This document shows, one piece after another, positions 26,923 through 60,872 of a stretch of DNA of 64,000 nucleotides (positions are counted from its first letter, which is position 1; every line of letters begins with the position of its first letter). Source of the DNA: a virus (taxonomy: Duplodnaviria; Heunggongvirae; Uroviricota; Caudoviricetes); the IMG/VR virus record IMGVR_UViG_3300026382_000001, one strand, 5' to 3'. The notes beneath the pieces are model-generated. The model made no database searches, had not been told where the DNA came from, and saw nothing but the letters and a program-made list of their open reading frames with translations. A program made the translations under genes and the position numbers.

Positions 26923-26946
26923 AATAATATAATTAAAGGGTTATTT

Positions 26947-27183: not shown

Positions 27184-27411
27184 ATGGAGTATATAAAACC
27201 TTTACCAGAAGATCAATTAAAACGTTACTTTTGTTCCGGTCTTAGTTTGACTGGAATAAGATAAAAAGATGGTTCTATAAAATGCCCGACCGATTTAAAT
27301 TATTTTTTAAATGATTGGCCAGACGAAATAAATTGTGGTCCAAATACTTATACTTTGGAGAATATACATAAATTCAATAATGGCTTAGAACAAGCTAATT
27401 ATTGCTAAATT
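27184..27411 (+). pseudogene. small ORF interrupted by an in-frame TAA (26 codons, TAA, 49 codons, same frame)
   Basis: MEYIKPLPEDQLKRYFCSGLSLTGIR-TAA-KDGSIKCPTDLNYFLNDWPDEINCGPNTYTLENIHKFNNGLEQANYC* reads in one frame. Confidence 0.25.
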
Positions 27412-36367: not shown

Positions 36368-38425
36368 ATGTCAGAAATATTACCAAAATTAGATAATATA
36401 CCAGATTTTGAAAATAAATTAATTCAATTAAATAATCAATTTCATATCAGTTCAAAGATTAAAGAAAATTTAGAAAATGAAACTGGAACATTTTTAGAAA
36501 AAAATACTCTTATTGAAGATGAATTAAAATTATTAAATGATACTAAAATGCTTTTAGAGACTTTAAAAATTCATAAACTTAAAGAGAAAAAAGATTTTAT
36601 TCTTAATATAGTAAATACTGCTTTAGTGGATATCTTCCAAGATAATATTAAAATAGCGATCGAACCTCAAGAAGGTAAAGGTAAAGTTAATACAAGTGGA
36701 ACTCAAAAATTTGATATAATTTTTTATCAAAATGATATTGAATTAGCTAGAAATGAAGAATTGCTTATTTCTAATGGTGGTGGTATAATGCAAGTTGTAT
36801 CGATGCTTTTTAAATTATTAATAGGTTTTATTTATTCTAAAAATACTTTTTATATGTTTGATGAAAGTTTTAGTCAGTTAAGTGCAGATAACAGAATTCG
36901 TCTTAGTAAATTTTTACAAATGTTTTGTGAACAATATAACTTTACTATAGTTGTTGTTTCTCAAGTTCTTGATTTAGATGAGTACGCTGATATCATTTAT
37001 AGCGTGAATGCTAAATATAATAGTAATGGGGTTCGAGAATTAGTACTAGAGGATACTACTGTTAAAGAAGGTATTCTTGAAAGAAATATTGGTGAAGGAC
37101 AAGAAGGATTATGGGGATTAAAAATAAAAAATTTCCAAAGTATTAAAGAAATTGATTTAATTTTTAAAGGTTATACAATTATACGTGGTCCAAATAATTC
37201 TGGTAAAAGTGCTATACTTAGAGCAGTTTCATCTATTTTGTATAATTCATTTAATGTAAAAAAATATCCTCGTAAAGCTGGTGGTTTAGATACTAAAGGT
37301 AATCCAAGTAAGAAAGTTTTAAATACTGAAATAATTTTAGAAAAAACTTATTTTAAAGATCCAACAATAGAAGATGAAAAAAATGAAATAATTCAAAAAC
37401 GAGTAGGATTGCGTTATAAAAGTTCTAAAGTATCCTTTGTTATAGAAGGAGAAGAATATTACGGAAAGAATTTAGCCGCTGAAAAACTTATGGAAAAAAT
37501 TGAAGAACTTGGATTCAAGTACATTAATTTAAAAGAATTTTATAAGAACTTTAAAGGTAATTTAAAAGATCAAACAGAAAGAATTGCTAGTACTACTCAG
37601 TACGACGGATTATTTTTAGTAGGTTCAAAAGGTAATGAAACAGAAAAAATTTTTAACTTTTTATTCAATACTGAAAATATTACTAAAGCTATTTTAAAAG
37701 TAAAAGAAGATATGATGCTTTTATCAAAGAATCATGAAACTAATCAAGAACGTATTCTTGAAAATACTTCTAAAATAGAAGAAGTCAATAATGAAATTAG
37801 ATATTATTTAAAATTATATTATTTAACAATTATTGAAAATTTATCTTTATTCGATACAAAAGAATTAAAAAATTATATAACCAATCTTGATTTTGAAATC
37901 AATACTAGAAATCAGATTATAAATTTAATTTCTAAAAATCTTAATTTATTTAATGATTCTTTTTTACAAGTTAAGCAAACGGTTCAATATACAAATAATT
38001 TAAAAGATAATTTTAATGAATTAAGTACTAGAACGGATTACTTAAATAAGCAAATTTTGAAATTAGAAGAATTAAAGATATTAATAGATGAAACTTCTGG
38101 AAAATTAGAAATGGTTAATCAAGGACTTCTTTTAAAGAAAAATATAGAAACCTTAAAATTCAATTCAAATATGAAAGTAAGCGAGATCGAAGTAATTGAT
38201 TTTAGTTTACGAATTAGATATCAAATTGTAGAACGATTGGAAAAGATTTTTAAATTAAATAATTATCTTGATCAATATTCAAAGGATTATTCTAAAAAGA
38301 ATAATCTTGACTTATATTTGGAACCAGTGATTAATCAATTACAAGTTCTAAAATTAAAACACCAATCTTTATTTACGGAATGTAATAAATGTTCAGGTAA
38401 AGGTTTTATATTAAAAGGAAAATAA
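36368..38425 (+). CDS. Rad50/SbcC-like SMC-family ATPase with domain order apparently permuted (T4 gp46 analog)
   Basis: Residues ~130-200 carry a signature-like LISNGGG, a Walker B/D-loop FYMFDESFSQLSADN and IVVVSQ. A canonical Rad50 N-terminus (LKIKNFQSIKEIDLIF..GYTIIRGPNNSGKSAILRAV, Walker A) starts at about residue 250. The rest is coiled-coil. Confidence 0.45.
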   Translation: MSEILPKLDNIPDFENKLIQLNNQFHISSKIKENLENETGTFLEKNTLIEDELKLLNDTKMLLETLKIHKLKEKKDFILNIVNTALVDIFQDNIKIAIEPQEGKGKVNTSGTQKFDIIFYQNDIELARNEELLISNGGGIMQVVSMLFKLLIGFIYSKNTFYMFDESFSQLSADNRIRLSKFLQMFCEQYNFTIVVVSQVLDLDEYADIIYSVNAKYNSNGVRELVLEDTTVKEGILERNIGEGQEGLWGLKIKNFQSIKEIDLIFKGYTIIRGPNNSGKSAILRAVSSILYNSFNVKKYPRKAGGLDTKGNPSKKVLNTEIILEKTYFKDPTIEDEKNEIIQKRVGLRYKSSKVSFVIEGEEYYGKNLAAEKLMEKIEELGFKYINLKEFYKNFKGNLKDQTERIASTTQYDGLFLVGSKGNETEKIFNFLFNTENITKAILKVKEDMMLLSKNHETNQERILENTSKIEEVNNEIRYYLKLYYLTIIENLSLFDTKELKNYITNLDFEINTRNQIINLISKNLNLFNDSFLQVKQTVQYTNNLKDNFNELSTRTDYLNKQILKLEELKILIDETSGKLEMVNQGLLLKKNIETLKFNSNMKVSEIEVIDFSLRIRYQIVERLEKIFKLNNYLDQYSKDYSKKNNLDLYLEPVINQLQVLKLKHQSLFTECNKCSGKGFILKGK

Positions 38426-41302: not shown

Positions 41303-41857
41303 ATGAAACCAGAAACAAAACAAAAATTCTTAAATGAAAAAATAGGTTATGTTGATGTGTTATTCGATTCAGAGTCTAATAGATTAATGAATCAAATAAT
41401 TAAAGATCTTGGATTAAAGAAAGATTTTAATGATGATTTTCATTGTACTATTTCATATTCTAAAAAAGATTTTAATTTTATATTACCTGGTGAAAAGTTA
41501 GATAATATAAAAATTAAAGATAATAAAGTACATGTTGATATAAACGAAAATTGTACTATTAAAGGTTTTGGTAATTTTAAAACAAATGAAGGTTTAAATT
41601 TACATATTGAATTAGATTGTCCTTTTTGTAAATCTGAATTTAAAAGATGTGTTAAAGCCGGAGCAGTATATGATTATCCAGAATATATACCACATATTAC
41701 TCTAATGTATAATTGTTCTTTACCAGGAGAAGACAAAGGTATACCGAAAGAGTATTTTAAAAATACTCTTAATAAGTACATTGGGAAAAAAATAAAGATA
41801 ATTAAAGAACGTAAACAAAAACTTAATAAAAATTGGGTTAAAGAATCCAAAAAATAA
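41303..41857 (+). CDS. 2H-phosphoesterase superfamily protein (LigT/cyclic phosphodiesterase-like)
   Basis: Two H-x-T/S-x motifs about 85 aa apart: FHCTISY and PHITLMY. Confidence 0.45.
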   Translation: MKPETKQKFLNEKIGYVDVLFDSESNRLMNQIIKDLGLKKDFNDDFHCTISYSKKDFNFILPGEKLDNIKIKDNKVHVDINENCTIKGFGNFKTNEGLNLHIELDCPFCKSEFKRCVKAGAVYDYPEYIPHITLMYNCSLPGEDKGIPKEYFKNTLNKYIGKKIKIIKERKQKLNKNWVKESKK

Positions 41858-45295: not shown

Positions 45296-45808
45296 TTAAT
45301 TTTCAATTTTATTAACTAATGGGCCCTTTCTACGGTACTTTGTTCCTATGGATTGGATAAGACCAACCTCATAATCTAAAAGTTCTTTAGCGTCATTAAA
45401 GACCTGATGGATAACGATCCAGTTCAATTGATATTCTTTCCAATCATGTGGAACTCCTATATCATTGTTCTTTTTCGCTCTTTCCATATTTTTTTCTATT
45501 TCTTTAAATTTTTCAACTTTTAAAACATTATGTTCTTTATTTTTTAAGTAAGATTGTATATGTTGATTATGTCTATAACCAGCACCTCTAGAGGCTTTAC
45601 CAACGTAAATAGGTTCATATGCACTACAATATGGTTTACCATCTGGAGCCTTAATATCAAAAGCTTTATTCAATTTTTTAAAAGGATCTAAATAAATATA
45701 AATATAAAATTGATATCTGTTATAATTGAAATTATCTATTTTTGGATAAATTTTATAAAGTTTTAATAAGTTCATATTATTACAAGTGCTTTTGATATTT
45801 TGGTTCAT
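45296..45808 (-). CDS. hypothetical protein (possible small nuclease-like, low confidence)
   Basis: 170 aa. ..EPIYVGKASRGAGYRHNQH.. is weakly reminiscent of a GIY-YIG/HNH-like core. Confidence 0.3.
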   Translation of the reverse strand: MNQNIKSTCNNMNLLKLYKIYPKIDNFNYNRYQFYIYIYLDPFKKLNKAFDIKAPDGKPYCSAYEPIYVGKASRGAGYRHNQHIQSYLKNKEHNVLKVEKFKEIEKNMERAKKNNDIGVPHDWKEYQLNWIVIHQVFNDAKELLDYEVGLIQSIGTKYRRKGPLVNKIEN

Positions 45809-46188: not shown

Positions 46189-46383
46189 TTACTCAGTTTT
46201 AGAAGCTTCTTGCTCCATCAATAATCTTAATTCTTCTTTAGTTTTTAGAAATTCTTTTTCAAGATCTATTCCACCAAAATCAATTACTTTGCCATCCGCT
46301 TCTACTACTTTAGTATCTGTATCGTACTTGATTACTTCCGCTTCCGGAAGTAATCTTTTAAATGTGTGCATTTTTATTCTCAT
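46189..46383 (-). CDS. small hypothetical protein
   Basis: 64-aa ORF. Confidence 0.3.
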   Translation of the reverse strand: MRIKMHTFKRLLPEAEVIKYDTDTKVVEADGKVIDFGGIDLEKEFLKTKEELRLLMEQEASKTE

Positions 46384-46392: not shown

Positions 46393-49300
46393 TTATTTTA
46401 ATTTATAAAGTTGAGTTTTAATTAAGAATGTTATTTTATCTCGGATCAAACTTCTTAACATAATCCTAACTTCTTGTCTTTCTTTTAGAACTATTTGCCC
46501 AGATGTATTATTATAATCATCTTGAGTACAATCCATAAGATTAAACATATTTGTATCTTTTGATTTATAAATCTCATCATTATAAGTACTTTTGGTTAAA
46601 CTACCATAAGAATCAAAATCCCCTTGTGGAAGTACAAGTGCTTGACCAATGAATTCATCGACATCCGTATAATCAGTTCTCCAATTATTAACATAATTTT
46701 CAGTACTAATATTAAAATTATATACACCTGCATCTAAAACAATACTTCTCATATTTTGCCAATCAGTATTCTTAACAGTAATGTACTGAGAACTTCTTAA
46801 TGTATTCTTTTCCGTTCTTAATTCTGGTAAATTTGTACTAGAATTACTAGAAGTTTCCTGAATTGGTAATTCTACAGTTTCTATAAAACCATTGCTATTA
46901 GTAAGACTTAATATATTACCGGAAATATCTAAAGCTTTACCATCTTCAGCTAATCCAACATAATCAGTTTTAAGAACTAAATCTGTAATTGGTTTACCAT
47001 TTAAAGTACTTGCGTTGGAAGCTTTTGAAACTATTTTTCTACCAGTTAATATATCGTTAAAATTATTTTCTAATTCTAATTCTTTATCAGTACTTCTTTT
47101 AATCTCGTCTTCTATTTTATTATCTAGTATTTTTTCAGCCGCTATAGCACGTTTTTCTTCTTTTTCTATTTTTTCTTTAATATCTGAATCATCGTATTCA
47201 ACAACATTTCCAGAAATTCCAGAATTAATTAAATTAGATAATTTAACATCTAATTCATTTAAATCAGAAGTTAATGTAACTATATTGTCAGTAAGAACAT
47301 CAGTTCTTGAAATACTGTCTATTTTTAAAGCCGATGTACTAGCAGCATTTTCAGCAATTGCTTGTTCTAAATTAATATTTTTAGATTGAACATCTTCTAA
47401 AGTATCTTTAATAGTATTTAAATCGGAAAGTACTTGTGTTAAAGCTTCCGTTTTAGTTTCTAATGAACTTAAACGTTCTCTATTAGCAGTAATTAAATCA
47501 CTAATATCTTTATTCTCGATATCTATAGAATTAATATAATCAATTACTTCGGCAAATGAATTAAGATCCATTGTACTACCATCAATAATACTAGTTATCT
47601 GATCTTTTACTTTTATAACTTCTTCTTCTAATTCTAATTCTTTAGTAATAGCTCTTTCTTCTTCTTTAGTAATTAAAGAACGAACTTCTGAATCATTATA
47701 AGCTTCGGGAATTTCTAAATTAGATAATTGAGCAATTTGGGCACTTAAAGAATCTAATGAATTGTTTATAGCTTCAATATCTTCTACAACTTGTTTTAAT
47801 TTTTCTTTATTATTATTAGATAAAGTATTAATTACCGCAATTTCTTCATTATTATTTGTAGTTTCTTCAATGGTATCTGTTTTTAACCAGTTATCGAAAT
47901 ATTTTACTCTTCTATGAACATATGTAAAATCATTATTTAAATTATTTAAATAATCTTTTAATCCTTTTATTGAATCAGTTTTCTTAACTTTTTCGTCAAT
48001 ATCTATATTTTCTAATTCAAATATTTTTTCATTAAGGCCTGTTATTTTTTCTTCAGCTTCTTTTAATTTTAGTAATACTGATTCAGTATTTGTATCTAGA
48101 ATTGTTTCAGTCGTACTTAACTTAGTTTCCGTTTGATTTAAACGTTCTTCTAAGGTTAAATGTTTTTTACCAAAATCATCAAATTTGAAATCATAATCTG
48201 CTTTTAGTTTCGCTTCAATTTCATTAATATTTTTAGTTTTTTCATTTAATAAATTGCTAAATTTAACATCCTTTAAATCCAAGGCACTTTTTAATTCTTC
48301 AATATTTTCAATAGTTTCACTATCCAATGATTTGTATTTTCTTTCAAATTTAACATCTAAGTCTTTAATATCATTTTTAGTTTTTTCTAATTTAACTCCA
48401 TGATCAGTTAAAAGGTTTTCGAGTATTTGCTCAACGTTTTTTGATCTAGTAGTTTCATTTTCAACTTTAGTATCAATTCCAGAAATACTTTCAATAATTT
48501 CTAAAATCTTTTCTATTAATTCTGCTTTAATTGATCCTTCTTCTCGAGAAGCTCTTGCAATTTCTAGAATTACTTTATTATCAACATCTTTAATAATAGC
48601 TTTTATTTCAGAAATAAGTGCTGGTAAGTGAGTATCTGAATCTAAGTTAATACTATTTACAAAATTTACTATTTCTGTAAAAGTTGTTTTATCTGCGGTA
48701 CTTGCAGTAAGTATTGAATCGATACGTGATTTTTCAATTGTTAAATCAGTATTAATTTTATCAGTTTCTAAAATACATAATCTATGTTTTTCATTGATTT
48801 CTGTTTGAAGGCGTTGTTCCTCTAAAATAGCTCTAGTTGTTTCAGTTTCAATTTTTTTATTTAATTGAATTTCTTCTTCTTTCGCTCTTTTATTTTCATT
48901 GATAATATCTTCTCTAAGAGAATTTTCATTAGTTCTTGAAGTTAATAATTCTTGATCTAATTTAACACTTAGTATATCATTTTTAGTGATACAATCTTCT
49001 TCTAAAACATCTATTTGATCCTGAAGATCATTTTCCACACCTTTAGCTCTAGAAATTTCTTGATCTACTCTAGAATTAATATAATTTTCTTCTTTTGTAG
49101 CTCTAATATTTTCTTGTGAAATTAAACTTCCAAGATATTCTTCTTTTACTTTTGCTCTATCGATTTCATTATCTAAATTATCCGAAATTTTATTTTCTTC
49201 CGTCTTAGCTCTTTGAATTTCATTTTCTAAATCAATAGTAATTTCTTTTTCTCTTTTAGAAGCTCTAGCCGTTTCAATATTTACAGAATTTTGAATAGTA

Positions 49301-50679
49301 CTTTCAGAATCAGTAGCTCTAATTATTTCGTTTTCGATTCTATCATCTAATTTTAAATAATTTGCTTTATGTTTTGAATTACAATCATCAATCTGTTCCT
49401 GGAGATATCTTTCTTCTTCTACCGCTCTATCATTTTCATCAGAAATTTTAGTATCTAAAACTTTTTCAGAATCGCTAGCTCGAACTATTTCATCTTCTAA
49501 TTCTAGCGCAATTTCTTTTTCTCTTTTAGAAGCTCTAGCCGTTTCAATATTAAGTTGATTTTGGATAACATCTTCCGAAGTCTTAGCCCTAATAATTTCC
49601 GATTCTAATCTATCATCTAAATCCTGAACAGCTTTATTATTACTAACTACATAACCAGCAAATGCAGTATCATTTTCTAAATCAACCGCCTCGATAAAAT
49701 CAACAATCTCTTTAAAAGAATCTTTATCAGTTGTACTTAAAGCCAACATACTATCAATTCTTTCAGTTTGTGTACTTAATTCATTTTTTAAAGCAATATC
49801 GGAAGCGATTCTAGATTGTTCTTCTTGGGATAGATTAAAAGTTAAAGTATTATTATTTTCAGTAATCTGATCCTGTAAATCTGCCTCGACCGCTTTTGCT
49901 CTAGAAATTTCATCATTCAAATCGGTGTGAATTTTAGTATCGTTTTCATCTATTTGATCTTGGAGATCTTGTTCCTTTGCTTTCGCTCTAGAAATTTCCG
50001 AATTAAGATTATTTGTAATATTTAATTCTGCGTCTGTAGCTCTAATAATTTCGTTTTTAATACTTGTATTTAAAATACTTTCTTGATTTTTCGCTCTAGA
50101 AATTTCAGTATTTAAATTATCTGTTATTTCTTCTTCGCTTTCTGTAGCACGATTAACTTCTCTAGAAATTAAATCCTTAATATTAGCTAATTCTGCCTGA
50201 ACTGTATCTTTATCAGCTTTAGTAAGTTTTAAATTATCAATTTGATCTTGTAAAGAAATTCTTAAAGTGTTGATAGTATCTGTTAAAGCGGCATTTAAAT
50301 CATCAATGAGTTTTTGAGCTAAAATTTTATCAATTTTTCTATCATCTAATTCATCTGTAATATTAATAAGTTCATGACGAACTTTTTCTAAGTTTTCTGC
50401 TGATTCAATTTTATCAATTTTCTTTTCATCCAATGTTTCATAATTAGAATCAATCTTGTCGTTAAGATCCGCTAAATCTTTTGCATACTCTGATTGAGTA
50501 ACGAAATCTTTAACAGCCTTTTCAAATTTTTCATCAACATACTCTAAAGTTTCCGTTTGAGTATCAGCAATTTTTTGCTCGAGATCCTGAACTTCTTTTT
50601 CAATAGTTACAAGAACATCTTGTATTTTACCATTTACATATATTGAGTTCTCGACTGCTAATTCTTGTAATAATGACAT
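46393..50679 (-). CDS. giant (1428 aa) coiled-coil tail-fibre-like protein with a C-terminal putative receptor-binding domain
   Basis: Long arrays of EISRAK/EIIRATDSE/IETARASKREKEI repeats. The last ~300 aa are non-repetitive and rich in G/N/T/Y (..TLNGKPITDL..YNFNISTENYVNNW..). Confidence 0.5.
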   Translation of the reverse strand: MSLLQELAVENSIYVNGKIQDVLVTIEKEVQDLEQKIADTQTETLEYVDEKFEKAVKDFVTQSEYAKDLADLNDKIDSNYETLDEKKIDKIESAENLEKVRHELINITDELDDRKIDKILAQKLIDDLNAALTDTINTLRISLQDQIDNLKLTKADKDTVQAELANIKDLISREVNRATESEEEITDNLNTEISRAKNQESILNTSIKNEIIRATDAELNITNNLNSEISRAKAKEQDLQDQIDENDTKIHTDLNDEISRAKAVEADLQDQITENNNTLTFNLSQEEQSRIASDIALKNELSTQTERIDSMLALSTTDKDSFKEIVDFIEAVDLENDTAFAGYVVSNNKAVQDLDDRLESEIIRAKTSEDVIQNQLNIETARASKREKEIALELEDEIVRASDSEKVLDTKISDENDRAVEEERYLQEQIDDCNSKHKANYLKLDDRIENEIIRATDSESTIQNSVNIETARASKREKEITIDLENEIQRAKTEENKISDNLDNEIDRAKVKEEYLGSLISQENIRATKEENYINSRVDQEISRAKGVENDLQDQIDVLEEDCITKNDILSVKLDQELLTSRTNENSLREDIINENKRAKEEEIQLNKKIETETTRAILEEQRLQTEINEKHRLCILETDKINTDLTIEKSRIDSILTASTADKTTFTEIVNFVNSINLDSDTHLPALISEIKAIIKDVDNKVILEIARASREEGSIKAELIEKILEIIESISGIDTKVENETTRSKNVEQILENLLTDHGVKLEKTKNDIKDLDVKFERKYKSLDSETIENIEELKSALDLKDVKFSNLLNEKTKNINEIEAKLKADYDFKFDDFGKKHLTLEERLNQTETKLSTTETILDTNTESVLLKLKEAEEKITGLNEKIFELENIDIDEKVKKTDSIKGLKDYLNNLNNDFTYVHRRVKYFDNWLKTDTIEETTNNNEEIAVINTLSNNNKEKLKQVVEDIEAINNSLDSLSAQIAQLSNLEIPEAYNDSEVRSLITKEEERAITKELELEEEVIKVKDQITSIIDGSTMDLNSFAEVIDYINSIDIENKDISDLITANRERLSSLETKTEALTQVLSDLNTIKDTLEDVQSKNINLEQAIAENAASTSALKIDSISRTDVLTDNIVTLTSDLNELDVKLSNLINSGISGNVVEYDDSDIKEKIEKEEKRAIAAEKILDNKIEDEIKRSTDKELELENNFNDILTGRKIVSKASNASTLNGKPITDLVLKTDYVGLAEDGKALDISGNILSLTNSNGFIETVELPIQETSSNSSTNLPELRTEKNTLRSSQYITVKNTDWQNMRSIVLDAGVYNFNISTENYVNNWRTDYTDVDEFIGQALVLPQGDFDSYGSLTKSTYNDEIYKSKDTNMFNLMDCTQDDYNNTSGQIVLKERQEVRIMLRSLIRDKITFLIKTQLYKLK

Positions 50680-50689
50680 ATATTTTCCT

Positions 50690-51058
50690 TTATTTTAAAT
50701 TATTTTTAAAATCTTCTATAGTACCAATATAATTTTTAAAATTGGTAATATCAGCCTTTATATTTAGTTTATCTAAATCATTAGCGTCTTTATATTCTGT
50801 ATCTCGAACTAAAAAATTTTGAAAATCGACATGAAAGCTATAAACATCCATTTTGATAATATTTAATTTCATCATTAAGTCTTTATATACTTTTCCAACT
50901 TTTGAACCTATAAAAGGTAATAATTTATCTTTAGGTACATCATCTGTATATAAAACATCCTCCTCAGAAGTATTAGTAATAATACTTCTGAGTACATTTT
51001 CGTCTTCTTTTACCATTAAATCAATTTGATCTACTGGATCATTAACTGTATCTGCCAT
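50690..51058 (-). CDS. small protein between the two fibre genes (possible fibre assembly/chaperone or adaptor)
   Basis: 122 aa. The proposed function is from position only. Confidence 0.3.
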   Translation of the reverse strand: MADTVNDPVDQIDLMVKEDENVLRSIITNTSEEDVLYTDDVPKDKLLPFIGSKVGKVYKDLMMKLNIIKMDVYSFHVDFQNFLVRDTEYKDANDLDKLNIKADITNFKNYIGTIEDFKNNLK

Positions 51059-51070
51059 AATTTATTATCC

Positions 51071-54000
51071 TTATAAGTTTTGTAAGATGAATGCGTCATC
51101 AAATTCGTCAGCACTTCCAAATTTTGGATGAGTCGCTTTATATAAAGTTTCATTAATCGCTTGAACTAAATCATCTTTGTTTTCTGTATCAAGATCATCC
51201 AAATCTCCAATCTGAGTTTGTAAATCTCTAGTGTTATCTGATAAAGTAGTGTCTAAAGTAATAAGACTATTTTTAACAGACATATTATCAATATAATTAC
51301 TTCCTGTAATAATTAAGTCATTATTATCCTCAAGTCCAATACTAACCCGCATTTGGTTATCATTAAGAATTCTGTCTTGAATTTCATCATTAACAACTTC
51401 TGTTAAATCTTTAATATCTTTAGTATTTGTATCTATATCTGATCTATTTTGACTAATTTGATCTTGAAGTAATTTTTGAACCGTATCTATTTTAAGATTT
51501 AATGCTTTAACATCATCAATTCTTTTTTGAATTTCGATATTTAAATCATTAGTTAATTTTTCAATATCTCTTATACGATCCTCGTTATTTGCATATACAA
51601 CTTCATCTAATCTATCTAAACAGCTATAAACTGTATTATTAGTACTTAGATAATGAGCGTTTAACATAGTTACGAATTCACCAAGATTATTTAATCCTGT
51701 TCCAGCAATAATATTATTTTGAATTTTTAATAAATCACTGTCTGCTTGATTAATATAAGCTACAACTTCTTCAACTGAATTTAAATCAACTGAGCTATCT
51801 TTTAGAATATCTTCTACTATTAATCTTAAATCTTGAACTTGAGTTTGAAGATTCTCTTCATCATTATTAAGAGATAATAACATATTTTGAAAATCTTGAA
51901 CTTTAGTATCTATAATTACAGATTTGTCAGTTAAGTCTTGGCTCAAATTAGCAAATTCTTGTTCTAAGGTACTTGTTTTATCATTAACTATTTCCGTAGT
52001 ACTTGCTAAAATATCAGCAGTTTGATTATTACTAGTAATAATTAATTCATTTAATTTAGAAGTAGTATTGTCAATATCATTTGCATTCATTGTTACACTA
52101 GATTCAAGTTTAGCAAATTCTACTGTACGTACTTCAACTTCTTTAGATAATTGATAATTAGTATCTTTTAATTTAAGATCCAATGTATCTACTATATTTT
52201 TGAAGTCTCCTATTTTAGTATTAACCATATCGATAATATCATTGGTAATATCTTTTACTAATTTAGTATTTTCTTCTAATCCCAAATCATTATCAGAACG
52301 CAATTGAATAATTTTAGCTTCTAAATCAAGTTCTTTAGTTTGAGCTCTATTAGATTCCTGAAGTACCACAGTACTAATTCTTGAATCAATAGTATTTAAT
52401 AAACTTTGAGTATCGAATGCATCAAGATTTATTCCATTTCCATCTGTAGAACCATTATAGGAAATTCCAGTAATGTTGCCATTTTCAATATCATTTTTAA
52501 TTTCATTATAAACATCTTGTTGGATATCTAATAATCTATTTAATGATGCTTGGACTGCAGCACTTAAATTATCATAATCTGTTACACCATCCCCTAGAAT
52601 TTCTTGAAATGTGGTCACACGATTATTAATATTTTTAGTAAATGTGTTAATTTCATCGGTATTTGTATTAATAAATGTATTAATAGTATTTAACATTGAA
52701 TCAGTTACAAATGTTCTATTAGTAATTTCTTTATTTAAAGCATTGTTTAAAGTAAGTAATTTATCTAATACCACACTGGCATTTAAATCAATATTATTTT
52801 GAAGTTCTTTTCTTAAATCAAGAATATCATTTTGACGAGCTTCAGTTTCTCTAATTAATTTAAGATTTAAATTATTATCTTCCGTAACTCTAAATGTTTT
52901 CTCACTTTGCAATGAAGAATCTATATAATTTTTAATACTGTCATAAAAACCTTGTCTAGCAGTTAATTCATTCTCTAACTTAGAAGTTAAAGTATCTATT
53001 TCTAAATTCGTATTAAATTCGGAATTTTGAATACTTGCTAATAAAGTATTTTTAAGATCATTAAATTTATTAGTATAATCTTCGGTCATTGAAGTAATTA
53101 AACCAAGGGCTTCTTGTTTAATATTTAAAATTTCTTCTTCTATATAATCTTTATTAAGATCCATATCGGCATTAACTTGAGATATTTTAAAATTAATATC
53201 ATCTTTAATATTTCTAATAATATCTGTATTTGGATCAATACTATTTAGAACATCTACGATTTTTTGGAATTCTTCTGTATCTACTAATGAACCATCTAAA
53301 ATACTTTCAACTCTAGAATTTAAATTATCTATTCTAGTGTTTGTAGCATCATCGTTATTATCAACTTTAGTTTCTAATAAATTTATTTCATTTTGAAGAT
53401 TTTCATCTTGAACTTGTCTATCTATAACTTCTTGATTAATTAGACCTTTTACTTCATTAATATTATTATTAATTTTTGTACTAGTATCATTAATTTTTAA
53501 ATTAATCGTATCTATTTTAGCATTTTGATCTACAATTGCATCTTGGATAATTACTTCAGAATCATTATTCATATTTTCTATTTTATAAACGGCTTCTTGA
53601 ATATTTTTATTACAAATTGCATATTTTTCTTCAACTGAAACCATAATAGCATCAAAATCAGTTCTAAGGTTATTAATATAATATTTTCTATCTTTTACTT
53701 CTGTAAGTAAATCAGTATTAACTGCTTCTATTAAAGTTCTAATATTGGCAAAGTCGTCATTAAGTGATTTAATAATTAAACCAGTTTGGGTATTATTATC
53801 ATTAATTGTATCAATAACTACTTCTTTAAAATTAGAATTTTCTTGAGCAACTTGAACTTTATTAGTTTCAAAATCTTGTACTAACCCTTTAAAGTCTGCT
53901 ATTCTTTCACGAATTTCATTATTTAATTGGATGCGAATAAGATTATCTTCACCAGCTCTTGCATTCATTTCATTACTAATTAAAGTATGTAATTCATCAA

Positions 54001-57000
54001 TATTATCATATACGGTTTTACTAAAATTAAGTAAATTTGTATCATTGCTAAAATCTGTACTATTAATTAAATCAACTATTTCTCTAAAAGAATTTAAATC
54101 GTCAGTGCTACCATCAAAAATAGTATTAACTGTTTGAGTTAAAGAATCTACTTGTACTTGAAGTTTAGCGTCTTCTGACGTTCTTTCGGTTCTTTCAGTA
54201 TCCAAATTTTTAGTAAAGTTTACAGTCATATTATAATTAGTAGTAATTCTTTCGCTTAAATCGCTATCTGCTTGTAGTCTTTCGTTAGTTTCTAAATTTA
54301 ATGCATTTCTTAAATCTTGGTCAGCTGTTGCTCTAGTACTTGTTTCTTGGCTTAATGCTGTTCTTACCTCTTTAATATCATTAATACGAGTTTGAATTTC
54401 AGTATTAATAGTATTTGTAGTATTAGTATTCCAAGTATTTTGCTTAATTTCATTATCCGAAACTACTTTAGATAAATCATTTACCGAATTTGTACGATCT
54501 TGAATTTCTTGATTAAGAATAATTTTAATACCATCAGTATCTTCAATTCTATCCGAGATTTCTTTATCAATTCTTGCATTTATATTAGCATCCGATTCTT
54601 TAAAAGTTGCTTCAACTGTATTAATTCTATTAGTAAATTTAGCATCTGTTTGAATCATTGCATCACGGACTTCTTTAAATGAATCTAAACTTGCATCCGA
54701 ATCCGCCATAATTTTAGAAATATCGTTAGCATTTTTATTAGCAAGTGCTTCTAATTCGATATCCTTAGTAACTGATCTATTAATTTCATCATTAATAATA
54801 GTTTCTAAAATACTATCTTGAGCTTTTCTATCTGTAGTTTCATTAGTAATAAGAGTTAAATTACTTCTGTATTCATCTTCTTGTTTTGTACTAAGATCTG
54901 AAATCGTTTTGGTAAATTTTTCTTTTTGTAATTCTGTACTAGCTTCTAAATCATTTAATTCATTTTGTAGATTATTAACTTGAGTAGTTCTCGTATTAAT
55001 TTCATTACTTAATTTATTATTTAAAAGAGCATCACCATTTTCTCTATCAACTATTTCTGAATCAATTCTAGCATTTACATCGGAATCTAATTGTTGGATA
55101 GTATTAACATTTTCTACGATTTTACCATCAAGTATTTTATCTTGAGAAATTCTATTTTGAACTTCAGTTTCTAAATTACTAACATCATTTGCTATTCTTT
55201 GACTTAATTCATCGGTAGTTACTTTAATAGCGCTTGCTAATGTATTATTATCATTTTCGGCTTTAATAATACTATCTGTAATTTTTTGACTTAATTCATT
55301 GTCACCATCTTGAATTTTAGAATAAATAACATCTAAAGTATTACTATCTTTTGGATAGTTACCAAAGAATTGATCTATAATATTATTGATACTAGAAATA
55401 TCCTGAATCATAGAATCGTGTTCCGAAGCATTTGTAGCTTCAAAAGCTTTTACATAATCCATAGTGTTATCAATATTAATTTGAAGTTCCGCTTTAGATT
55501 CGGCAATAAGATTTAACAACTCTGTTACTTTATTATCAATTTTTAAATTAGTATTATCAATTAATTCGATTACTGTATCAAGGTTTGTCTGAACAGTTTC
55601 AGTTAATGTTTCTAATCTATTTTCTTGAATTTTTAAAAGATCGTTAAAAATAATCTTTTGGTTTTCAATATTTGTATTAATTTCTTGAATAGCATTTAAT
55701 CTATCTTTAACTTCTTGTGTAATTAAGGCCGTTACCTTTTCGATGCTTTCAATGCGTAATTGAGCTTCTGTTTGAATACTTTCGGTAAGGATATCGTCGG
55801 CTTCTAATCTAAATTCGGATTCTTTATTAACTGCATCTAAAATAGTTATTTTAAAATCTTTAATATCTTGGATAAGATCAGTAAACATATTTTCTTTTTC
55901 ACCAGAAAGTTGGTTCACATAATCAAGTATTTCTTTAAGAGAATCGAATGCTTCTGTACTTCCATCAAGAACTGCTGAAAGTTTATCAGCTTGAATAGTT
56001 ATTTGATTTTGAAGATCTTTGGCTTGAGCAATTCTAGTATCAATTTCCTGAACTAGTTTATCATCTAAATTTTTAATAGCTAATGAACGAGCCTGAACTT
56101 CTTCATTAATATTAGCATTTAATTCAGTTTGAACAGAATCAAAAGTATCTTTAATAGTATTAATTAAAGCAGTATTAGCATTAATATCTTGAGTAAGGGT
56201 ATTAGTGGCAGTTTCTAAATTAATTTGTAATTCGTTATCTTTATTTCTTAATTCTTCGGTCAGAACTTTTAATTCAGTACTAGCTTTAAGAGCGTTATCA
56301 ATAATTAAACCATAATTGGTATCTACTTTATTTTCAATAAGATTTATTTTAGATGTTTTAATTTCATCCATTTCTAAGAAATCTTTATTAAGGTTATTAA
56401 TAAGAGTTCTTAAATTAGTATCATTTAATGAAATAGTATTTTTAACTTCTGTTAAACCACCTTCCAAAAGGGTTACTCTAAGATCCAAAGCGTTACATCC
56501 AATTTTTAACTGAGTATCTAGATCAGTTAGACCAGAATTTAAAGAATTAAAATTATTAGTAATAATAGTATTAAGATTTTCTAAATTAGTAACTTCAGTA
56601 TTGGCACCAGCAGTAATTGCTAAAATTTCATTTTCTAATCGTTGAACATAAGATTCTAAATTAGAAATATTAATTTGGCTAAGATTTAAAGCACTTTCAG
56701 CCGTAGTTACAGCATCTTGTACTTGATTTGAAATTACTAAATTTTTATCATTGATATCTTTAAGAATATTAGCCTTAGTATCCAACATTAAAGAATTTAA
56801 AGTATTAATAGTATTTATATTATTAGTAATTGATGTTTGTAAAACTGTTATTTGATCTTGAATACTTTCCGATGTAATCGTAGTACTATCTGTTTCAGTA
56901 CTAGCTTCAAGATTAATAATTCTAGTTTCTATTTGGGATATCGATTTATTAATTCCGAATAATTTTTTATTCATGTCTCCAGTTCTTTCGTCAAAACTTT

Positions 57001-58372
57001 GAACAAGATTTTCATAATTACTAGTATTTGCATCTACTGCCGTATCAATTCTAGAAAGTAAATCATTTTTAAGCGAATCCATTTTAGAAGAATTAGTATT
57101 AATTTGTCCATAAATATCAACAAATTTATTAACATTTTCTAAATTCTTAGTTTCCATTTCTAGAATAGCATCTTCTATTCTTGTATCAAGAGCTTCAAAA
57201 TTACTAGAGTAATCAATAGCTTCCAAATCCTTAGTAAATTGATTAACAAAATTATTAATTTTAATTTCTAATACATTATTACTATCAACTCTATTTTTAG
57301 ATTCAATTTCAACCATATTAAAAGTTTTAATATAATTATCATTTACTAATTTAATTACATCCGCGAATTTACTTTTAATTTCCTGCTCTTTAATATTAAA
57401 GATACTAATAAAATCATCTAAGTCTGTTCTAAGACCTTGAAGAGTTTCAGAAACCCGAAATTCAATTTTAGAAAGATCATTATTAAGATTTTTAACATCT
57501 AACTTACGTTCAGTTAATTCATCAATAATTTTTTCTTCATTTGCTTTAATTAATGCTTGGATAGCTTCCAATTGAATATCAATATTTATATTTAATTTAG
57601 CAAAGTAATTACTAAGAGTAGTTACACTATCAGCAGTTTTCTTATTTTCAATACTTAAAGAATTGATAATATTTAAATTTTCATCCGTTCCAAGATTAGT
57701 AATTTCAGATATAATATTTAATTTAGTATCCAGTTCGGCTCTATTAAGTACCAAATAAGATAATTTAGTTTCTTGTAATAAAAGATCTGATTTAATATCA
57801 GTAATAATATTAAGCAATTGTGTAAAAGTGCTATTAATTTTAATTTCGGAAGCAGTTTTTAAATTACTAATATTAGTCTCTACTGCACTAGTACTTGCTT
57901 TAGTATTTACTCGAGTTTGTAAATCAGAATTTACATTTTCTATTTTGGAATCGAGTAATTGGATATTACTATCAGCTAACTTTCTATCATTTTCAATAGT
58001 TACTCTAAGATCGTTTTGATCATTTTCAATAAGAGCTTTATTAATTATATTAATACTATTTTGAATATTTGCTAAAGTAGTGTCAAATTTTGTACTAGTT
58101 TCCTGTAAAAGAAAACTTTGATTTTGAGTTTCATTTTCTAAAAACGAAATTTTAGTTTGAGCATTATTTACAGAAGTAATACAATCGTCACCGCATGGGT
58201 TACACTCATGGGTATTTTTTATTTGATATTCCTCTCGTTCTGGTACCCATTCTGGTACCCATTCTGGTACCCGTTCTGGTGCTCGTTCTACGGTTTGAAC
58301 TCCAGATTTACCAAAAGTTTGAATATTACTTGTTTTATATGTTTTTATTTCCGACATAGCAAAATTATGCAT
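51071..58372 (-). CDS. giant (2433 aa) coiled-coil fibre/structural protein
   Basis: An uninterrupted 7.3-kb ORF with N/I/L/D/T/E-rich heptad-like composition. It has an N-terminal PERVPEWVPEWVPER repeat and CNPCGDDC, plus periodic DGS..D..SF.EIVD.IN motifs shared with the 1428-aa protein. Confidence 0.5.
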   Translation of the reverse strand: MHNFAMSEIKTYKTSNIQTFGKSGVQTVERAPERVPEWVPEWVPEREEYQIKNTHECNPCGDDCITSVNNAQTKISFLENETQNQSFLLQETSTKFDTTLANIQNSINIINKALIENDQNDLRVTIENDRKLADSNIQLLDSKIENVNSDLQTRVNTKASTSAVETNISNLKTASEIKINSTFTQLLNIITDIKSDLLLQETKLSYLVLNRAELDTKLNIISEITNLGTDENLNIINSLSIENKKTADSVTTLSNYFAKLNINIDIQLEAIQALIKANEEKIIDELTERKLDVKNLNNDLSKIEFRVSETLQGLRTDLDDFISIFNIKEQEIKSKFADVIKLVNDNYIKTFNMVEIESKNRVDSNNVLEIKINNFVNQFTKDLEAIDYSSNFEALDTRIEDAILEMETKNLENVNKFVDIYGQINTNSSKMDSLKNDLLSRIDTAVDANTSNYENLVQSFDERTGDMNKKLFGINKSISQIETRIINLEASTETDSTTITSESIQDQITVLQTSITNNINTINTLNSLMLDTKANILKDINDKNLVISNQVQDAVTTAESALNLSQINISNLESYVQRLENEILAITAGANTEVTNLENLNTIITNNFNSLNSGLTDLDTQLKIGCNALDLRVTLLEGGLTEVKNTISLNDTNLRTLINNLNKDFLEMDEIKTSKINLIENKVDTNYGLIIDNALKASTELKVLTEELRNKDNELQINLETATNTLTQDINANTALINTIKDTFDSVQTELNANINEEVQARSLAIKNLDDKLVQEIDTRIAQAKDLQNQITIQADKLSAVLDGSTEAFDSLKEILDYVNQLSGEKENMFTDLIQDIKDFKITILDAVNKESEFRLEADDILTESIQTEAQLRIESIEKVTALITQEVKDRLNAIQEINTNIENQKIIFNDLLKIQENRLETLTETVQTNLDTVIELIDNTNLKIDNKVTELLNLIAESKAELQINIDNTMDYVKAFEATNASEHDSMIQDISSINNIIDQFFGNYPKDSNTLDVIYSKIQDGDNELSQKITDSIIKAENDNNTLASAIKVTTDELSQRIANDVSNLETEVQNRISQDKILDGKIVENVNTIQQLDSDVNARIDSEIVDRENGDALLNNKLSNEINTRTTQVNNLQNELNDLEASTELQKEKFTKTISDLSTKQEDEYRSNLTLITNETTDRKAQDSILETIINDEINRSVTKDIELEALANKNANDISKIMADSDASLDSFKEVRDAMIQTDAKFTNRINTVEATFKESDANINARIDKEISDRIEDTDGIKIILNQEIQDRTNSVNDLSKVVSDNEIKQNTWNTNTTNTINTEIQTRINDIKEVRTALSQETSTRATADQDLRNALNLETNERLQADSDLSERITTNYNMTVNFTKNLDTERTERTSEDAKLQVQVDSLTQTVNTIFDGSTDDLNSFREIVDLINSTDFSNDTNLLNFSKTVYDNIDELHTLISNEMNARAGEDNLIRIQLNNEIRERIADFKGLVQDFETNKVQVAQENSNFKEVVIDTINDNNTQTGLIIKSLNDDFANIRTLIEAVNTDLLTEVKDRKYYINNLRTDFDAIMVSVEEKYAICNKNIQEAVYKIENMNNDSEVIIQDAIVDQNAKIDTINLKINDTSTKINNNINEVKGLINQEVIDRQVQDENLQNEINLLETKVDNNDDATNTRIDNLNSRVESILDGSLVDTEEFQKIVDVLNSIDPNTDIIRNIKDDINFKISQVNADMDLNKDYIEEEILNIKQEALGLITSMTEDYTNKFNDLKNTLLASIQNSEFNTNLEIDTLTSKLENELTARQGFYDSIKNYIDSSLQSEKTFRVTEDNNLNLKLIRETEARQNDILDLRKELQNNIDLNASVVLDKLLTLNNALNKEITNRTFVTDSMLNTINTFINTNTDEINTFTKNINNRVTTFQEILGDGVTDYDNLSAAVQASLNRLLDIQQDVYNEIKNDIENGNITGISYNGSTDGNGINLDAFDTQSLLNTIDSRISTVVLQESNRAQTKELDLEAKIIQLRSDNDLGLEENTKLVKDITNDIIDMVNTKIGDFKNIVDTLDLKLKDTNYQLSKEVEVRTVEFAKLESSVTMNANDIDNTTSKLNELIITSNNQTADILASTTEIVNDKTSTLEQEFANLSQDLTDKSVIIDTKVQDFQNMLLSLNNDEENLQTQVQDLRLIVEDILKDSSVDLNSVEEVVAYINQADSDLLKIQNNIIAGTGLNNLGEFVTMLNAHYLSTNNTVYSCLDRLDEVVYANNEDRIRDIEKLTNDLNIEIQKRIDDVKALNLKIDTVQKLLQDQISQNRSDIDTNTKDIKDLTEVVNDEIQDRILNDNQMRVSIGLEDNNDLIITGSNYIDNMSVKNSLITLDTTLSDNTRDLQTQIGDLDDLDTENKDDLVQAINETLYKATHPKFGSADEFDDAFILQNL
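58236..58290 (-). repeat. tandem 12-nt repeats (TTCTGGTACCCA-like x4) encoding a (P)EWVPE peptide repeat at the N-terminus of the giant protein
   Basis: Read from the sequence: ttctggtacccattctggtacccattctggtacccgttctggtgctcgttc. Confidence 0.7.
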
Positions 58373-58412: not shown

Positions 58413-60872
58413 TTAAAACGTTAGATTAATGTTTATATTCTCTAGGTCAAATTGAAAGAAAGGTGGACAAAAATCCAATAAATCCTCAAAAGTCATCTGT
58501 TCCTTAATATTGTAGTATATAGTATCAGAATCATTTATAATAAATACAGATGGTTCAAGTACTTCAACATTTTTAATATAAGCATAATCGGAATCTAAAT
58601 TATATTTAGAATATATGATATTCTCTAATTCCGATTCAAAGTATCTCATTTGAAATCCTCTTTTTTCTTTAAAGAAATTAATAATATCTATTTCAAGACT
58701 TAGATTTAATTCCGATAAAGTTTTAAAAGTAGTACTTATATCGAAATAGTTTTTATCTACATAAATATTTAAAGTAATTTTTTTATTAAGACTTAAGTCA
58801 ATATTATTATTCTTTTTATATACTGGAATATTATATTTTGGATCCAAAAATAATGTATTATAAAAACATTGAAAAATTCTAGTATTAAAATTTACCAAAT
58901 CTTTTGTATCCTGTACTTTAAAGAAATCGTTTAAAATATTATATTGTGTTTGAAATTCTAAATCATTAAACGCAGTTTCTATAAATGGAAGTTTTAATAA
59001 GATACTTGTTTCTTCATTTGAATATGGGTGTAATATTTCATTTGCTTTTACTAATATATTTCTTAATTCATTATCTAAATAACCTAAAGAAATATCGGAT
59101 AAATCTACAATTTCTGGAATATAATTTTCCGAATTATGTTGATAATATTTAAAAGCAATTTGTTTAGAAATTAATTGATAAACTTCTTCTGTACAATAAA
59201 ATTTATCAAGTACGGTATTATTACTATCCTGTACTTCTAATTTTATTTCTTGAATAGGTTCTTTAATAATACAAAAATCATCCGTAAAAAGAGTATTAAC
59301 TTCCCAAGTAAAATTATTAGCATAATCCAAAGTAAATGTAAAATTATCTGTTTGGAAATGATAACTTTTATCACTTACAGCACCTTGATCCAAAATAAAA
59401 TAACTTTTATTTGTATTAAAATCGTAATTTAATGAAAACACAATTTCGCTATTAATAGTATTAGCTAAATCTGGAACTAAGTTAATATATATTTTAGGAT
59501 TAACTATATACATTTCCGTTTCGTTCGAACTTAGGTACTTATAATAAAATGGACTAATCATCTCTTTACCATTTATATTTATACGGGGATAAAATGGATT
59601 TGTACTGATTATACTTTCTTCGATATTTTGAGAATAGGTATCTAGTACTACACTATTATTTTGTATTTTAGTTTCTAAAGTATTATAAATATATACAAAG
59701 TTCTGACCATTTAAAAATTTATTATCTATAAATGGACGTATACCATTCTCTTTAAAAAATATTTCAAAATCGTTCACAGAAGTTAAACTTTTTCTATATG
59801 ATATTTTATTAAATATATCTTGTTTGATTTCATCTATATTTTGAATATTTTTTCCATCTGATCCACCATCGATACTAACACCATTTAAAGAATATTTTGT
59901 TAATTCGAATAACCCATTCTTATTTTCTATTTTAGTCTCAACATCTGTTAAAATAAAAGAAAGATTATTAAAATTTCCTTCAATTCCTAAGGTTTCATCT
60001 ATACATAAAATTATTTCATCATTTGTATTTAAATATTTACCTACTCTACCATCCCCGGTTTCAAAGGAAACACTATTTTCAAATATAGTTAGAAATAAAT
60101 CTAAACTTAATCTATTACTTTTAAATTTAAAAAATTTATTTGTGAATTCGTCTATTCCGAAAGCCGTAGATACCTCATTAGGTTCATATTTTTCTAATAA
60201 ATCCATTGGAATTTTTTCTTTGGTTGCATGATTATACCAAGAACGTATTTCTTTAATATTTTTGTAATTATCTACATTCATATTGAATTTAAAAGTTTCA
60301 CCGATGTTATAACTTGGAACGATTATTTTTTTATATGTTCTTTTCATTTGTAATACATTATCATAATGTATTAAGTAAATATTTTTTCCTGGTTTAGTAG
60401 GATCTGGCGCTAATGTAACTAACAATTGAATTTTAGAAGTATCTGTATATTTAAAAGCGGTTACTTGATTAGTACTTTGTATAATTTCTATTTTATCCAT
60501 AATCATAAAATTTATATTATTTTCATCTACAAATTCAAAATTCTTTGGAATATTATATATCATATTTTTAACGTTTGTTATAACTATTTCTGGAACAATA
60601 ATACTTATATTAAATTTTGCTGGTTTGGCAAAATTTAATTGAGTATCGTATATACTACTGTGAAATAGCATACTATTAAAATCTCTAGCTAAACTAGGAT
60701 TCATTTCTCTAAATAAAGTACTATAATAATTAGCCATATCGTATTTAATATTTGCTAAATAATTTGTAATTACTCCAAGTACTCCCGATTTTAATAAAAC
60801 TGGATTAGTAATATTTAATTCATCTTGAACCATATTGCGGAATTCAGTCTGTGTAATCTCTATTGATTGCAT
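58413..60872 (-). CDS. large structural protein (819 aa), possibly a baseplate or fibre-attachment component
   Basis: Its position is upstream (in the direction of transcription) of the fibre genes. No motif was recognised. Confidence 0.35.
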   Translation of the reverse strand: MQSIEITQTEFRNMVQDELNITNPVLLKSGVLGVITNYLANIKYDMANYYSTLFREMNPSLARDFNSMLFHSSIYDTQLNFAKPAKFNISIIVPEIVITNVKNMIYNIPKNFEFVDENNINFMIMDKIEIIQSTNQVTAFKYTDTSKIQLLVTLAPDPTKPGKNIYLIHYDNVLQMKRTYKKIIVPSYNIGETFKFNMNVDNYKNIKEIRSWYNHATKEKIPMDLLEKYEPNEVSTAFGIDEFTNKFFKFKSNRLSLDLFLTIFENSVSFETGDGRVGKYLNTNDEIILCIDETLGIEGNFNNLSFILTDVETKIENKNGLFELTKYSLNGVSIDGGSDGKNIQNIDEIKQDIFNKISYRKSLTSVNDFEIFFKENGIRPFIDNKFLNGQNFVYIYNTLETKIQNNSVVLDTYSQNIEESIISTNPFYPRININGKEMISPFYYKYLSSNETEMYIVNPKIYINLVPDLANTINSEIVFSLNYDFNTNKSYFILDQGAVSDKSYHFQTDNFTFTLDYANNFTWEVNTLFTDDFCIIKEPIQEIKLEVQDSNNTVLDKFYCTEEVYQLISKQIAFKYYQHNSENYIPEIVDLSDISLGYLDNELRNILVKANEILHPYSNEETSILLKLPFIETAFNDLEFQTQYNILNDFFKVQDTKDLVNFNTRIFQCFYNTLFLDPKYNIPVYKKNNNIDLSLNKKITLNIYVDKNYFDISTTFKTLSELNLSLEIDIINFFKEKRGFQMRYFESELENIIYSKYNLDSDYAYIKNVEVLEPSVFIINDSDTIYYNIKEQMTFEDLLDFCPPFFQFDLENININLTF

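Follow-up and report, generated by a model that had tools for sequence, protein, structure and literature searches.

What does a short motif do when it recurs at intervals of several hundred residues in two giant, otherwise near-repetitive proteins? The question is raised by the 64,000-nucleotide (nt) stretch of viral DNA analyzed here (the window; Caudoviricetes, IMG/VR record IMGVR_UViG_3300026382_000001), whose minus strand encodes two fiber-type proteins that we designate A and B. A preliminary description of the locus had reported open reading frames (ORFs) of 2433 and 1428 amino acids (aa), which are borne out at exactly the coordinates given, and had proposed that a conserved motif, perhaps a trimerization node, a hinge, or a docking site, interrupts the coiled coils of both proteins. 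We find that the motif is a conserved module that continues the coiled coil in heptad phase and is shared by hundreds of protein clusters, and we tentatively propose that it keeps the chains of very long fibers in register. The two genes are as follows.

51071-58372, minus strand: fiber protein A, an ORF of 2433 aa with five motif copies
46393-50679, minus strand: fiber protein B, an ORF of 1428 aa with a helical shaft, three motif copies, and a C-terminal beta-rich domain

A protein search found both fiber proteins, identical, on a 281-kb metagenomic contig, and the topoisomerase II encoded in the window is ~33% identical to T4-like phage enzymes. From this we conclude that the DNA comes from a jumbo phage, uncultured and a distant relative of T4, whose contig measures at least 281 kb. 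The G+C content of the window is ~26%, and a nucleotide search of the 12-kb fiber region against GenBank phages gave no match.

Both proteins have the composition and the periodicity of long helical shafts. Asn, Asp, Glu, Ile, Leu, and Thr are abundant in each, Pro (0.3% in A, 0.4% in B) and Gly (1.8% and 1.7%) are scarce, and hydrophobic residues recur with a peak at 3.5 to 3.7 residues (maximum 3.6), at a power 4.7 times that of shuffled sequence in A and 2.8 times in B. A is almost wholly helical, carries a net charge of -205, contains only two prolines between residues 60 and 2415, and lacks any hydrophobic or membrane-like segment (the maximum Kyte-Doolittle mean over 19 residues is 0.91). 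Windows in heptad pattern, with five of six a/d positions hydrophobic, are three to four times commoner in A and B than in shuffles, and the register shifts about every 25 to 28 residues. The earlier view of both as giant helical proteins of fiber type is supported. At the helix rise of 0.148 nm per residue in coiled coils, the fully extended shafts would measure, as upper bounds, ~340 nm in A and ~180 nm in B.

Several features hint, indirectly, at three chains. Ile is frequent at a as well as at d, which is consistent with a trimer and no proof of one, and R-A-x-x-x-E units and the YadA_stalk segments of relatives point the same way. The Kammerer trimerization motif, R-h-x-x-h-E, was set aside as a marker: its strict pattern is enriched (11 versus 0.9 expected in B, 5 versus 1.0 in A), but most of the units in B read R-A-x-x-x-E, and it serves as a hint only. 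A parallel trimeric coiled coil is probable for A and B. That the two proteins are virion fibers is very likely, and that they are tail fibers specifically is favored on balance.

The motif copies lie at the following positions.

55865-56008, minus strand: copy A1, A residues 789-836, found by the profile and in orthologs
54605-54748, minus strand: copy A2, A residues 1209-1256, the most divergent copy (11.7 bits with the independent profile)
54014-54157, minus strand: copy A3, A residues 1406-1453, found by the profile and in orthologs
53195-53338, minus strand: copy A4, A residues 1679-1726, found by the profile and in orthologs
51701-51844, minus strand: copy A5, A residues 2177-2224, found by the profile and in orthologs
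49642-49785, minus strand: copy B1, B residues 299-346, a canonical type I copy (...RIDSMLALSTTDKDSFKEIVDFIEAVDLENDTAFAGYVVS; 71.9 bits with the independent profile), modeled as a helix
48607-48750, minus strand: copy B2, B residues 644-691, found by the profile and in orthologs
47482-47625, minus strand: copy B3, B residues 1019-1066, found by the profile and in orthologs

In a six-frame scan of the window, a 48-column profile, which includes these eight sites themselves, detects exactly eight sites at 47 to 67 bits, the next best scoring 5.6 bits. An independent hidden Markov model (HMM), built from 269 motif instances drawn only from proteins that are neither orthologs nor paralogs of A or B, recovers all eight at 11.7 to 71.9 bits, whereas none of 400 shuffled copies scores above 6.6 bits. 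The preliminary description had counted at least five copies in A and three in B; these counts are exact, and every string that it quoted is present. The density is one copy per 487 aa in A and one per 476 aa in B, and the motif-to-motif distances predicted for A are ~62, 29, 40, and 74 nm.

The motif is also conserved beyond this phage. A has five close orthologs (45 to 83% identity) and five distant ones (2336 to 2565 aa, down to ~30% identity), and B has four (40 to 66% identity). Lack of conservation in orthologs would have told against the motif; all eight sites are instead kept at matching positions in every ortholog, down to ~30% identity, and are conserved above the rest of the shafts. 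Identity in A is 0.586 in motif windows versus 0.433 elsewhere, a value as high being found in none of 5,000 random window sets, and when windows of A are ranked by conservation, the motif sites come out on top; in B, the values are 0.698 and 0.474 (P = 0.004). The motif is a real, selected feature. The gene order A, small ORF, B is likewise kept in a 204-kb relative. Three motif copies are present in each member of a paralogous family of ~1040 to 1100 aa. One member, the third motif-bearing fiber protein of this phage, of 1041 aa and with three copies, is encoded on the 281-kb contig at 10001-13126, outside the window; this paralog directly follows a 360-aa collagen-like protein that matches many PHROG tail-fiber families, and a ribonucleotide reductase gene comes next.

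The module is ~45 residues, or six heptads, long. Over 381 distinct copies, its consensus is LQSNIDTEKGRIDAILSASDADKDSFAEIVDLINSVDTENDNAFAGYVLSNN, with I13, L14, F24, E26, V28, and D35 conserved at 92 to 95% and hydrophobic columns at 3, 10, 13/14, 24, 27/28, 30/31, 34, 42, and 45/46. When position 3 is taken as a, positions 3, 10, 17, 24, 31, 38, and 45 fall at a and positions 13, 20, 27, 34, and 41 at d; because the core positions stand at exact multiples of seven, the heptad phase is unbroken over the six heptads. Polar residues occupy core positions as Ser17 (75% of copies), Asp20 (81%), and Asn38 (85%), so arranged that S17 and D20 on one side and N38 on the other bracket a hydrophobic block of F24, I27, V28, L30, I31, and V34. 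Gly occupies position 16 in 31% of copies, and the motif core is free of proline. A resemblance of D18-x-D20-x-D22 to an EF-hand loop was considered and dropped, since the copies do not show the conservation that such a loop requires at its sixth and twelfth positions.

Does the module break the rod? The preliminary description had the motif interrupt the coiled coil, and the evidence goes the other way. The heptad phase runs on through the motif, and an AlphaFold2 model of B residues 264 to 388, based on a 59-row family alignment, is one unbroken helix (DSSP residues 2 to 124) with a mean predicted local distance difference test (pLDDT) score of 91. In this model, the motif is part of the rod and leaves no gap. 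Beta-layers, the elements of an alpha/beta coiled coil, require insertions of two or six residues in the heptads, according to PMC4786415, and the module contains no insertion of either length.

The preliminary description treated the motif as peculiar to A and B, and here it fell well short. Searched against 1.84 billion representative proteins, the profile matches 763 protein clusters at an E value of ≤1e-3, 330 at ≤1e-10, and 34 at ≤1e-30. Carriers contain from 1 to 11 copies per protein, and because many of them have an ordinary amino-acid composition, the spread of the motif is not an artifact of AT-rich sequence. A degenerate DNA pattern for DKDSFAEIV, with which viral and bacterial sequences were scanned, occurs in at least 120 IMG/VR viral contigs of 5 to 200 kb. 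In bacterial genomes and metagenome-assembled genomes, it occurs at 17 loci, versus ~1.6 by chance on our own estimate, including loci in Pseudoalteromonas (two species), Marinomonas, Alteromonadaceae, and Oceanospirillales.

Carriers also indicate what kind of protein uses the module. Two Pseudoalteromonas motif proteins (678 and 574 aa), probably prophage encoded, have C termini that match the PHROG category "long tail fiber protein distal subunit" (E, ~1e-37). One carrier is encoded in the head and neck gene region of a T4-like contig of 165 kb, where genes for gp23, gp13, the prohead protease, and terminase surround it. The trimeric adhesin stalk of Pfam, YadA_stalk, is found in a number of carriers and is present as well in a distant match of B that has no motif. 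Because carriers have tail-fiber C termini, YadA_stalk segments, and T4-like or collagen-like fiber contexts, a fiber shaft module, used in tail fibers, is the best-supported identity. The 165-kb contig, which is marine, encodes ribosomal protein S21 (5991-6185) beside its prohead protease gene; this protein is a reported feature of pelagimyophages.

Whether in A and B, in their paralog, or in six to nine further carriers, the module is covered by no family in Pfam, NCBIfam, or PHROGs, and the motif profile found nothing below an E value of 0.78 among PDB sequences. Similarly, one canonical copy and one full-length carrier gave no tblastn match in 50,697 GenBank phage records, and a literature search on the motif string and on comparable coiled-coil fiber motifs found no description of the module.

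To judge by shared patterns, the module is plausibly a long-coiled-coil relative of a known tail-fiber motif. The classical motif GAPAALDTLNELAAALGNDPNFATT occurs in 773 GenBank phage records, in features annotated as tail fiber, tail protein, and minor tail protein; there are two copies in a P2 H-like fiber, and it is also found in chain La of PDB 9D93, mycobacteriophage Bxb1 "Tail collar fibers, gp4." Both motifs share the pattern h-x-x-h-h, small, x-x-x-L-D-[ST]-[LF]-x-E-[IL]-[AV]-x-x-[IL]-x-x-D-x-N-F, and both are short, helical, and recurrent in the fiber shafts of unrelated phages, but the classical motif is shorter and lies between Gly/Pro-rich or beta segments, whereas the module studied here lies inside a long coiled coil. 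Some proteins with the studied motif also contain an intermediate variant, LQxQIxNILSNxDPAALDSLxEVVxAFQxADxxLNxAI, which aligns with the studied motif in hhalign at a probability of 93% (E, 2.5e-7). The classical motif of P2 gpH-like tail fibers and actinophage minor tail proteins (LDTLNELAAALG) reaches 5% against the studied motif and 18% against the intermediate variant, neither of them significant, and the HMM scores 7 bits on the P2 H-like protein.

Three better-known systems offer comparisons for the fibers as a whole. Like T4 fibritin (gp wac), A and B appear to be parallel helical fibers whose coiled-coil segments are set off at intervals by special elements and whose C terminus is a domain of its own; unlike it, they carry modules in heptad phase where fibritin has loops, and neither fibritin nor any PDB chain resembles them in sequence. 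Fibritin has 486 residues, and A and B are 3 to 5 times longer. The arrangement of a large proximal gene, small gene(s), a large distal gene with a tip, and further small genes recalls the T4 long tail fiber (gp34-gp35-gp36-gp37-gp38), but there is no sequence similarity, and a joint between A and B would be an analogy only. T4 long tail fibers are mainly beta-structured, whereas A and B are helical. Adhesins with YadA_stalk, like the shafts proposed here, are long trimeric coiled coils of mixed periodicity with polar core motifs that coordinate ions or water, as set out in PMC13580157; in contrast to them, A and B have no Pfam match, membrane anchor, or head domains, and the motif is not among the adhesin connectors named in Pfam.

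Two further segments of B bear on its function.

48826-50160, minus strand: region of 18-aa (54-nt) E..RA...E..L repeats in B, more than 20 units, with a phrog_13589 match
46396-47046, minus strand: C-terminal nonhelical, beta-rich domain of B, residues ~1212-1428 (~215 aa), a candidate receptor-binding tip

E..RA...E occurs 20 times in B versus 0.0 expected and very few times in A, and the DNA repeat families of B are spaced at multiples of 54 nt. The 18-aa units, of which B has more than 20, resemble the E..RA..AE..L repeats of Pfam PTR (PF12789) and phrog_13589 and account for the phrog_13589 and Vibrio matches of B; a distant B homolog has a sub-threshold PTR match. They fill the sequence between modules and are distinct from the motif, and A has almost none of them. 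A tblastn search of GenBank phages with B turned up proteins of Vibrio phages and no others (E, 1e-10 to 2e-11). Some of them are annotated "tail fiber protein," and the likeness runs only through the 18-aa repeats; the gene of one of these matches adjoins a "long tail fiber protein distal subunit" gene. Distant matches of B include a "pyocin knob domain-containing protein" and another protein with Pfam Phage_tail_C. Apart from phrog_13589, no family in Pfam, PHROGs, or NCBIfam matches B, and PDB sequences yielded nothing meaningful.

The C-terminal domain of B had been described as nonrepetitive and ~300 aa long. It is indeed a conserved, nonrepetitive block in five orthologs, nonhelical and beta-rich, but its length is ~215 aa. 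AlphaFold2 predicts mostly beta strands past the end of the helix, at low confidence (pLDDT, 57), and Foldseek matches of this model among viral models reach a template modeling (TM) score of at most 0.34; they are a mix in which capsid jelly rolls and a C1q-like protein stand beside tail fibers and a fibritin. The tip matches no domain in Pfam or PHROG. Its segment NASTLNGKPITDLVLKTDY presumably resembles a pattern that often precedes tail-fiber tips. It is plausible that the tip binds a receptor or host.

A has two distinctive segments of its own.

52394-52513, minus strand: Gly-rich segment of A, residues 1954-1993 (ENGNITGISYNGSTDGNGINLDAF), a candidate helix break, hinge, or knot
58236-58289, minus strand: 12-nt tandem repeat of 4.5 copies with 90% matches, detected by Tandem Repeats Finder

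Residues 1954 to 1993 are the only internal part of A in which a 25-aa window holds at least four Gly or Pro residues, and they lie outside all motif copies. A degenerate motif-like sequence, EILGDGVTDYDNLSAAVQASLNRLL, which the profile leaves unscored, precedes this stretch. The 12-nt repeat encodes PE(R/W)VPE close to the N terminus of A. The tandem PEWVPE repeat noted earlier is therefore real at the DNA level, but it is absent from all five close orthologs of A, whose first 20 to 60 residues are unrelated; it is a strain-specific expansion rather than a feature of the family. Searches of A gave no match by tblastn in GenBank phages and none in Pfam, PHROGs, or NCBIfam, and a PDB sequence search gave nothing meaningful.

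How might such chains be assembled, and what would the module contribute? Helical trimeric fibers are a known phage means of reaching hosts. Because the chains, of 1400 to 2400 residues, are built from near-repetitive heptads and 18-mers, many out-of-register pairings are possible, and to our knowledge it is not understood how very long low-complexity coiled coils avoid mis-registration. Polar core layers cost stability but impose partner and register specificity, as is established in model coiled coils. We propose that A and B make up very long virion fibers, each a parallel coiled coil of alpha helices that most likely joins three identical chains, and most probably the tail fibers of this jumbo phage, and that B ends in a beta-rich tip that would probably bind the host. 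The modules would serve as registry and trimerization nodes: their buried polar layers, possibly with water or ions, would admit only in-register parallel pairing, pin three long repetitive chains in alignment about every 250 to 480 residues, and perhaps nucleate trimerization. In trimeric coiled coils, polar core residues are described as having no access to solvent, pointing inward, and coordinating water or ions (PMC13580157).

A, B, and the product of the small gene between them may build one jointed fiber, by analogy with T4 gp34-37.

50690-51058, minus strand: 122-aa ORF between A and B, a candidate connector, chaperone, or assembly factor

In the 204-kb relative, this ORF has the same position and is 69% identical, versus 62% for A and 41% for B; it has no match in Pfam, PHROGs, or NCBIfam. 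We infer both the joint, from the T4 analogy, and attachment to the tail rather than to the head or neck. Taken as a whole, trimeric coiled-coil tail fibers with registry nodes are in our estimation evenly poised between right and wrong, and the registry function of the module, which we read from its sequence pattern, is offered tentatively.

A number of points weigh against this proposal. Both the trimer and the arrangement of its polar layers are deductions from sequence alone. The pLDDT of the modeled segment falls to block means of 70 to 85 exactly over the motif, versus 96 to 98 in the flanks, and a helix predicted for a monomer leaves room for local nonhelical or fold-back structure in the assembled fiber. 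Acidic residues D11, D22, E26, D35, and D39 are conserved on the surface, which a core-registry role leaves unexplained and which would suit a binding site. The conserved length of A (2336 to 2565 aa) is also expected of a ruler protein. No baseplate or tail gene is recognized beside A and B, whose flanking ORFs have no family matches. Further, long carriers have one copy per ~450 to 480 aa, a spacing that A and B fit, and copy number rises with protein length among the 150 best-scoring proteins (Spearman 0.48, P = 2e-9), but that sample is biased toward multi-copy proteins, and module duplication would give the same correlation. A fuller version of the proposal would make the module a "registry lock" that has gone undescribed despite wide use, with Ser/Asp and Asn layers that coordinate ions or water and an acidic surface that perhaps recruits a partner; this version is on the doubtful side.

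The conserved surface leads to the alternative that survives best, in which the modules are docking sites for a side fiber, a decoration or adhesin subunit, a chaperone, or the adjoining small proteins, so that the fibers would be branched or decorated. The acidic positions listed above, together with N32, are conserved beyond the core; when very distant proteins are compared, conservation is far higher in the module than on either side of it, a pattern that a shared partner would produce; and small, well-conserved ORFs accompany the fiber genes. There is also precedent in T5-like phages with branched lateral fibers, where one fiber protein docks another, according to PMC4728585. Carriers, however, occur in very different phages (contigs of 5 to 200 kb) and in Pseudoalteromonas, with no common partner gene identified among them, and a protein with as many as 11 copies would need many partners. 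We consider docking unlikely.

Less likely again is that the modules are hinges or discontinuities, such as knots, beta-layers, or flexible joints, that split the rod into segments. The drop in AlphaFold2 confidence over the motif would fit, as would the frequent Gly at position 16 and the likeness of S-x-x-D to a helix N-cap, and trimeric phage fibers with beta-layers and loops between coiled-coil segments are known (PMC4786415). Such a break is difficult to reconcile with core positions that keep exact multiples of seven and have no 2- or 6-residue insertion, with the continuous helix of the model and its proline-free motif core, and with the location of the one clearly Gly-rich segment of A outside the motifs; we rate a hinge as quite improbable.

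A might instead be a tape-measure or internal ruler protein that sets a tail dimension, sharing a helical module with fibers through mosaicism. Its length is tightly kept in orthologs down to ~30% identity, and it is almost entirely helical, without a recognizable receptor-binding domain. Yet its lack of a hydrophobic segment and its net charge speak against this role, as does its fivefold use of a module whose other carriers have tail-fiber C termini or trimeric adhesin stalk segments. A is also cotranscribed, in conserved order, with B; no tail-tube, chaperone, or hub genes are recognized nearby, where neighbors are unrecognized or metabolic; and neither A nor B matches a tape-measure family in PHROG or Pfam. 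This reading strikes us as very unlikely. Finally, that the motif is a recombination landmark for swapping fiber modules, like the conserved boxes of T-even distal fiber genes, is hardly credible: the module does separate variable segments, recurs in mosaic proteins with different C termini, and varies from 1 to 11 copies, but conservation acts at the protein level on specific core and surface residues, and because the eight copies share only 39 to 62% nucleotide identity (third positions of identical codons agree at 12 to 78%) and a repeat search of the window found no long DNA repeat joining them, they are no substrate for homologous recombination.

Trimeric helical phage fibers with conserved shaft elements are already known, and the module itself is new to family libraries. 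It is a concrete, conserved, and countable element with which to approach the mis-registration question, and as a defined family it would improve tail-fiber annotation in marine and other uncultured phages. A and B, if extended, would be among the longest phage fibers inferred from sequence, which is relevant to the search of jumbo phages for hosts in dilute environments. If the modules are registry locks, repetitive chains of more than 2000 residues would assemble in register into fibers several hundred nanometers long, and the capture radius of the jumbo phage would be several times that of T4.

The fiber genes are set among ORFs of the same strand, and GC skew shows a strand switch near 45 kb. 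Past B come, in order, ORFs of 64 aa, 122 aa (coiled coil), and 170 aa. The ORFs adjoining the fiber genes are the following.

46189-46383, minus strand: 64-aa ORF that begins 9 nt past B, a possible chaperone or connector
45296-45808, minus strand: 170-aa ORF downstream of the fiber genes, with a GIY-YIG-like pattern (YIYIYLDPF ... YVGKASRGAGYRHNQH)
58413-60872, minus strand: 819-aa ORF directly upstream of A

The 64-aa ORF resembles by eye a 68-aa ORF at the equivalent site of the 204-kb relative, a pair for which BLASTP at an E value of 0.01 found no match, and it matches no known family. The 170-aa ORF has no match in Pfam or PHROG; it is 87% identical in the 204-kb relative, versus 41 to 62% for the fiber proteins, and is unusually conserved for its location. 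For the 819-aa ORF, Pfam, PHROGs, NCBIfam, and PDB sequences gave nothing. The relative likewise has an 819-aa gene upstream of its A ortholog; there, ~8 kb of inserted genes, one of them glycosyltransferase-like, stand between the two.

Other genes of the window encode T4-type topoisomerase II subunits, a Lon-like protease, a Rad50/SMC-like ATPase, a thymidylate kinase, and an Acb1 homolog.

13516-15492 and 17165-18562: topoisomerase II large subunit and second subunit, with three small ORFs between them
24268-26922 and 36368-38425, plus strand: Lon-like ATP-dependent protease (phrog_4871; E, 1e-199) and Rad50/SMC-like ATPase
41303-41857, plus strand: 184-aa ORF matching Pfam Acb1, an anti-CBASS protein (E, 1.6e-20)

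In the 204-kb relative as well, a gene annotated as Acb1 (26841-27227) lies close to the fiber locus.

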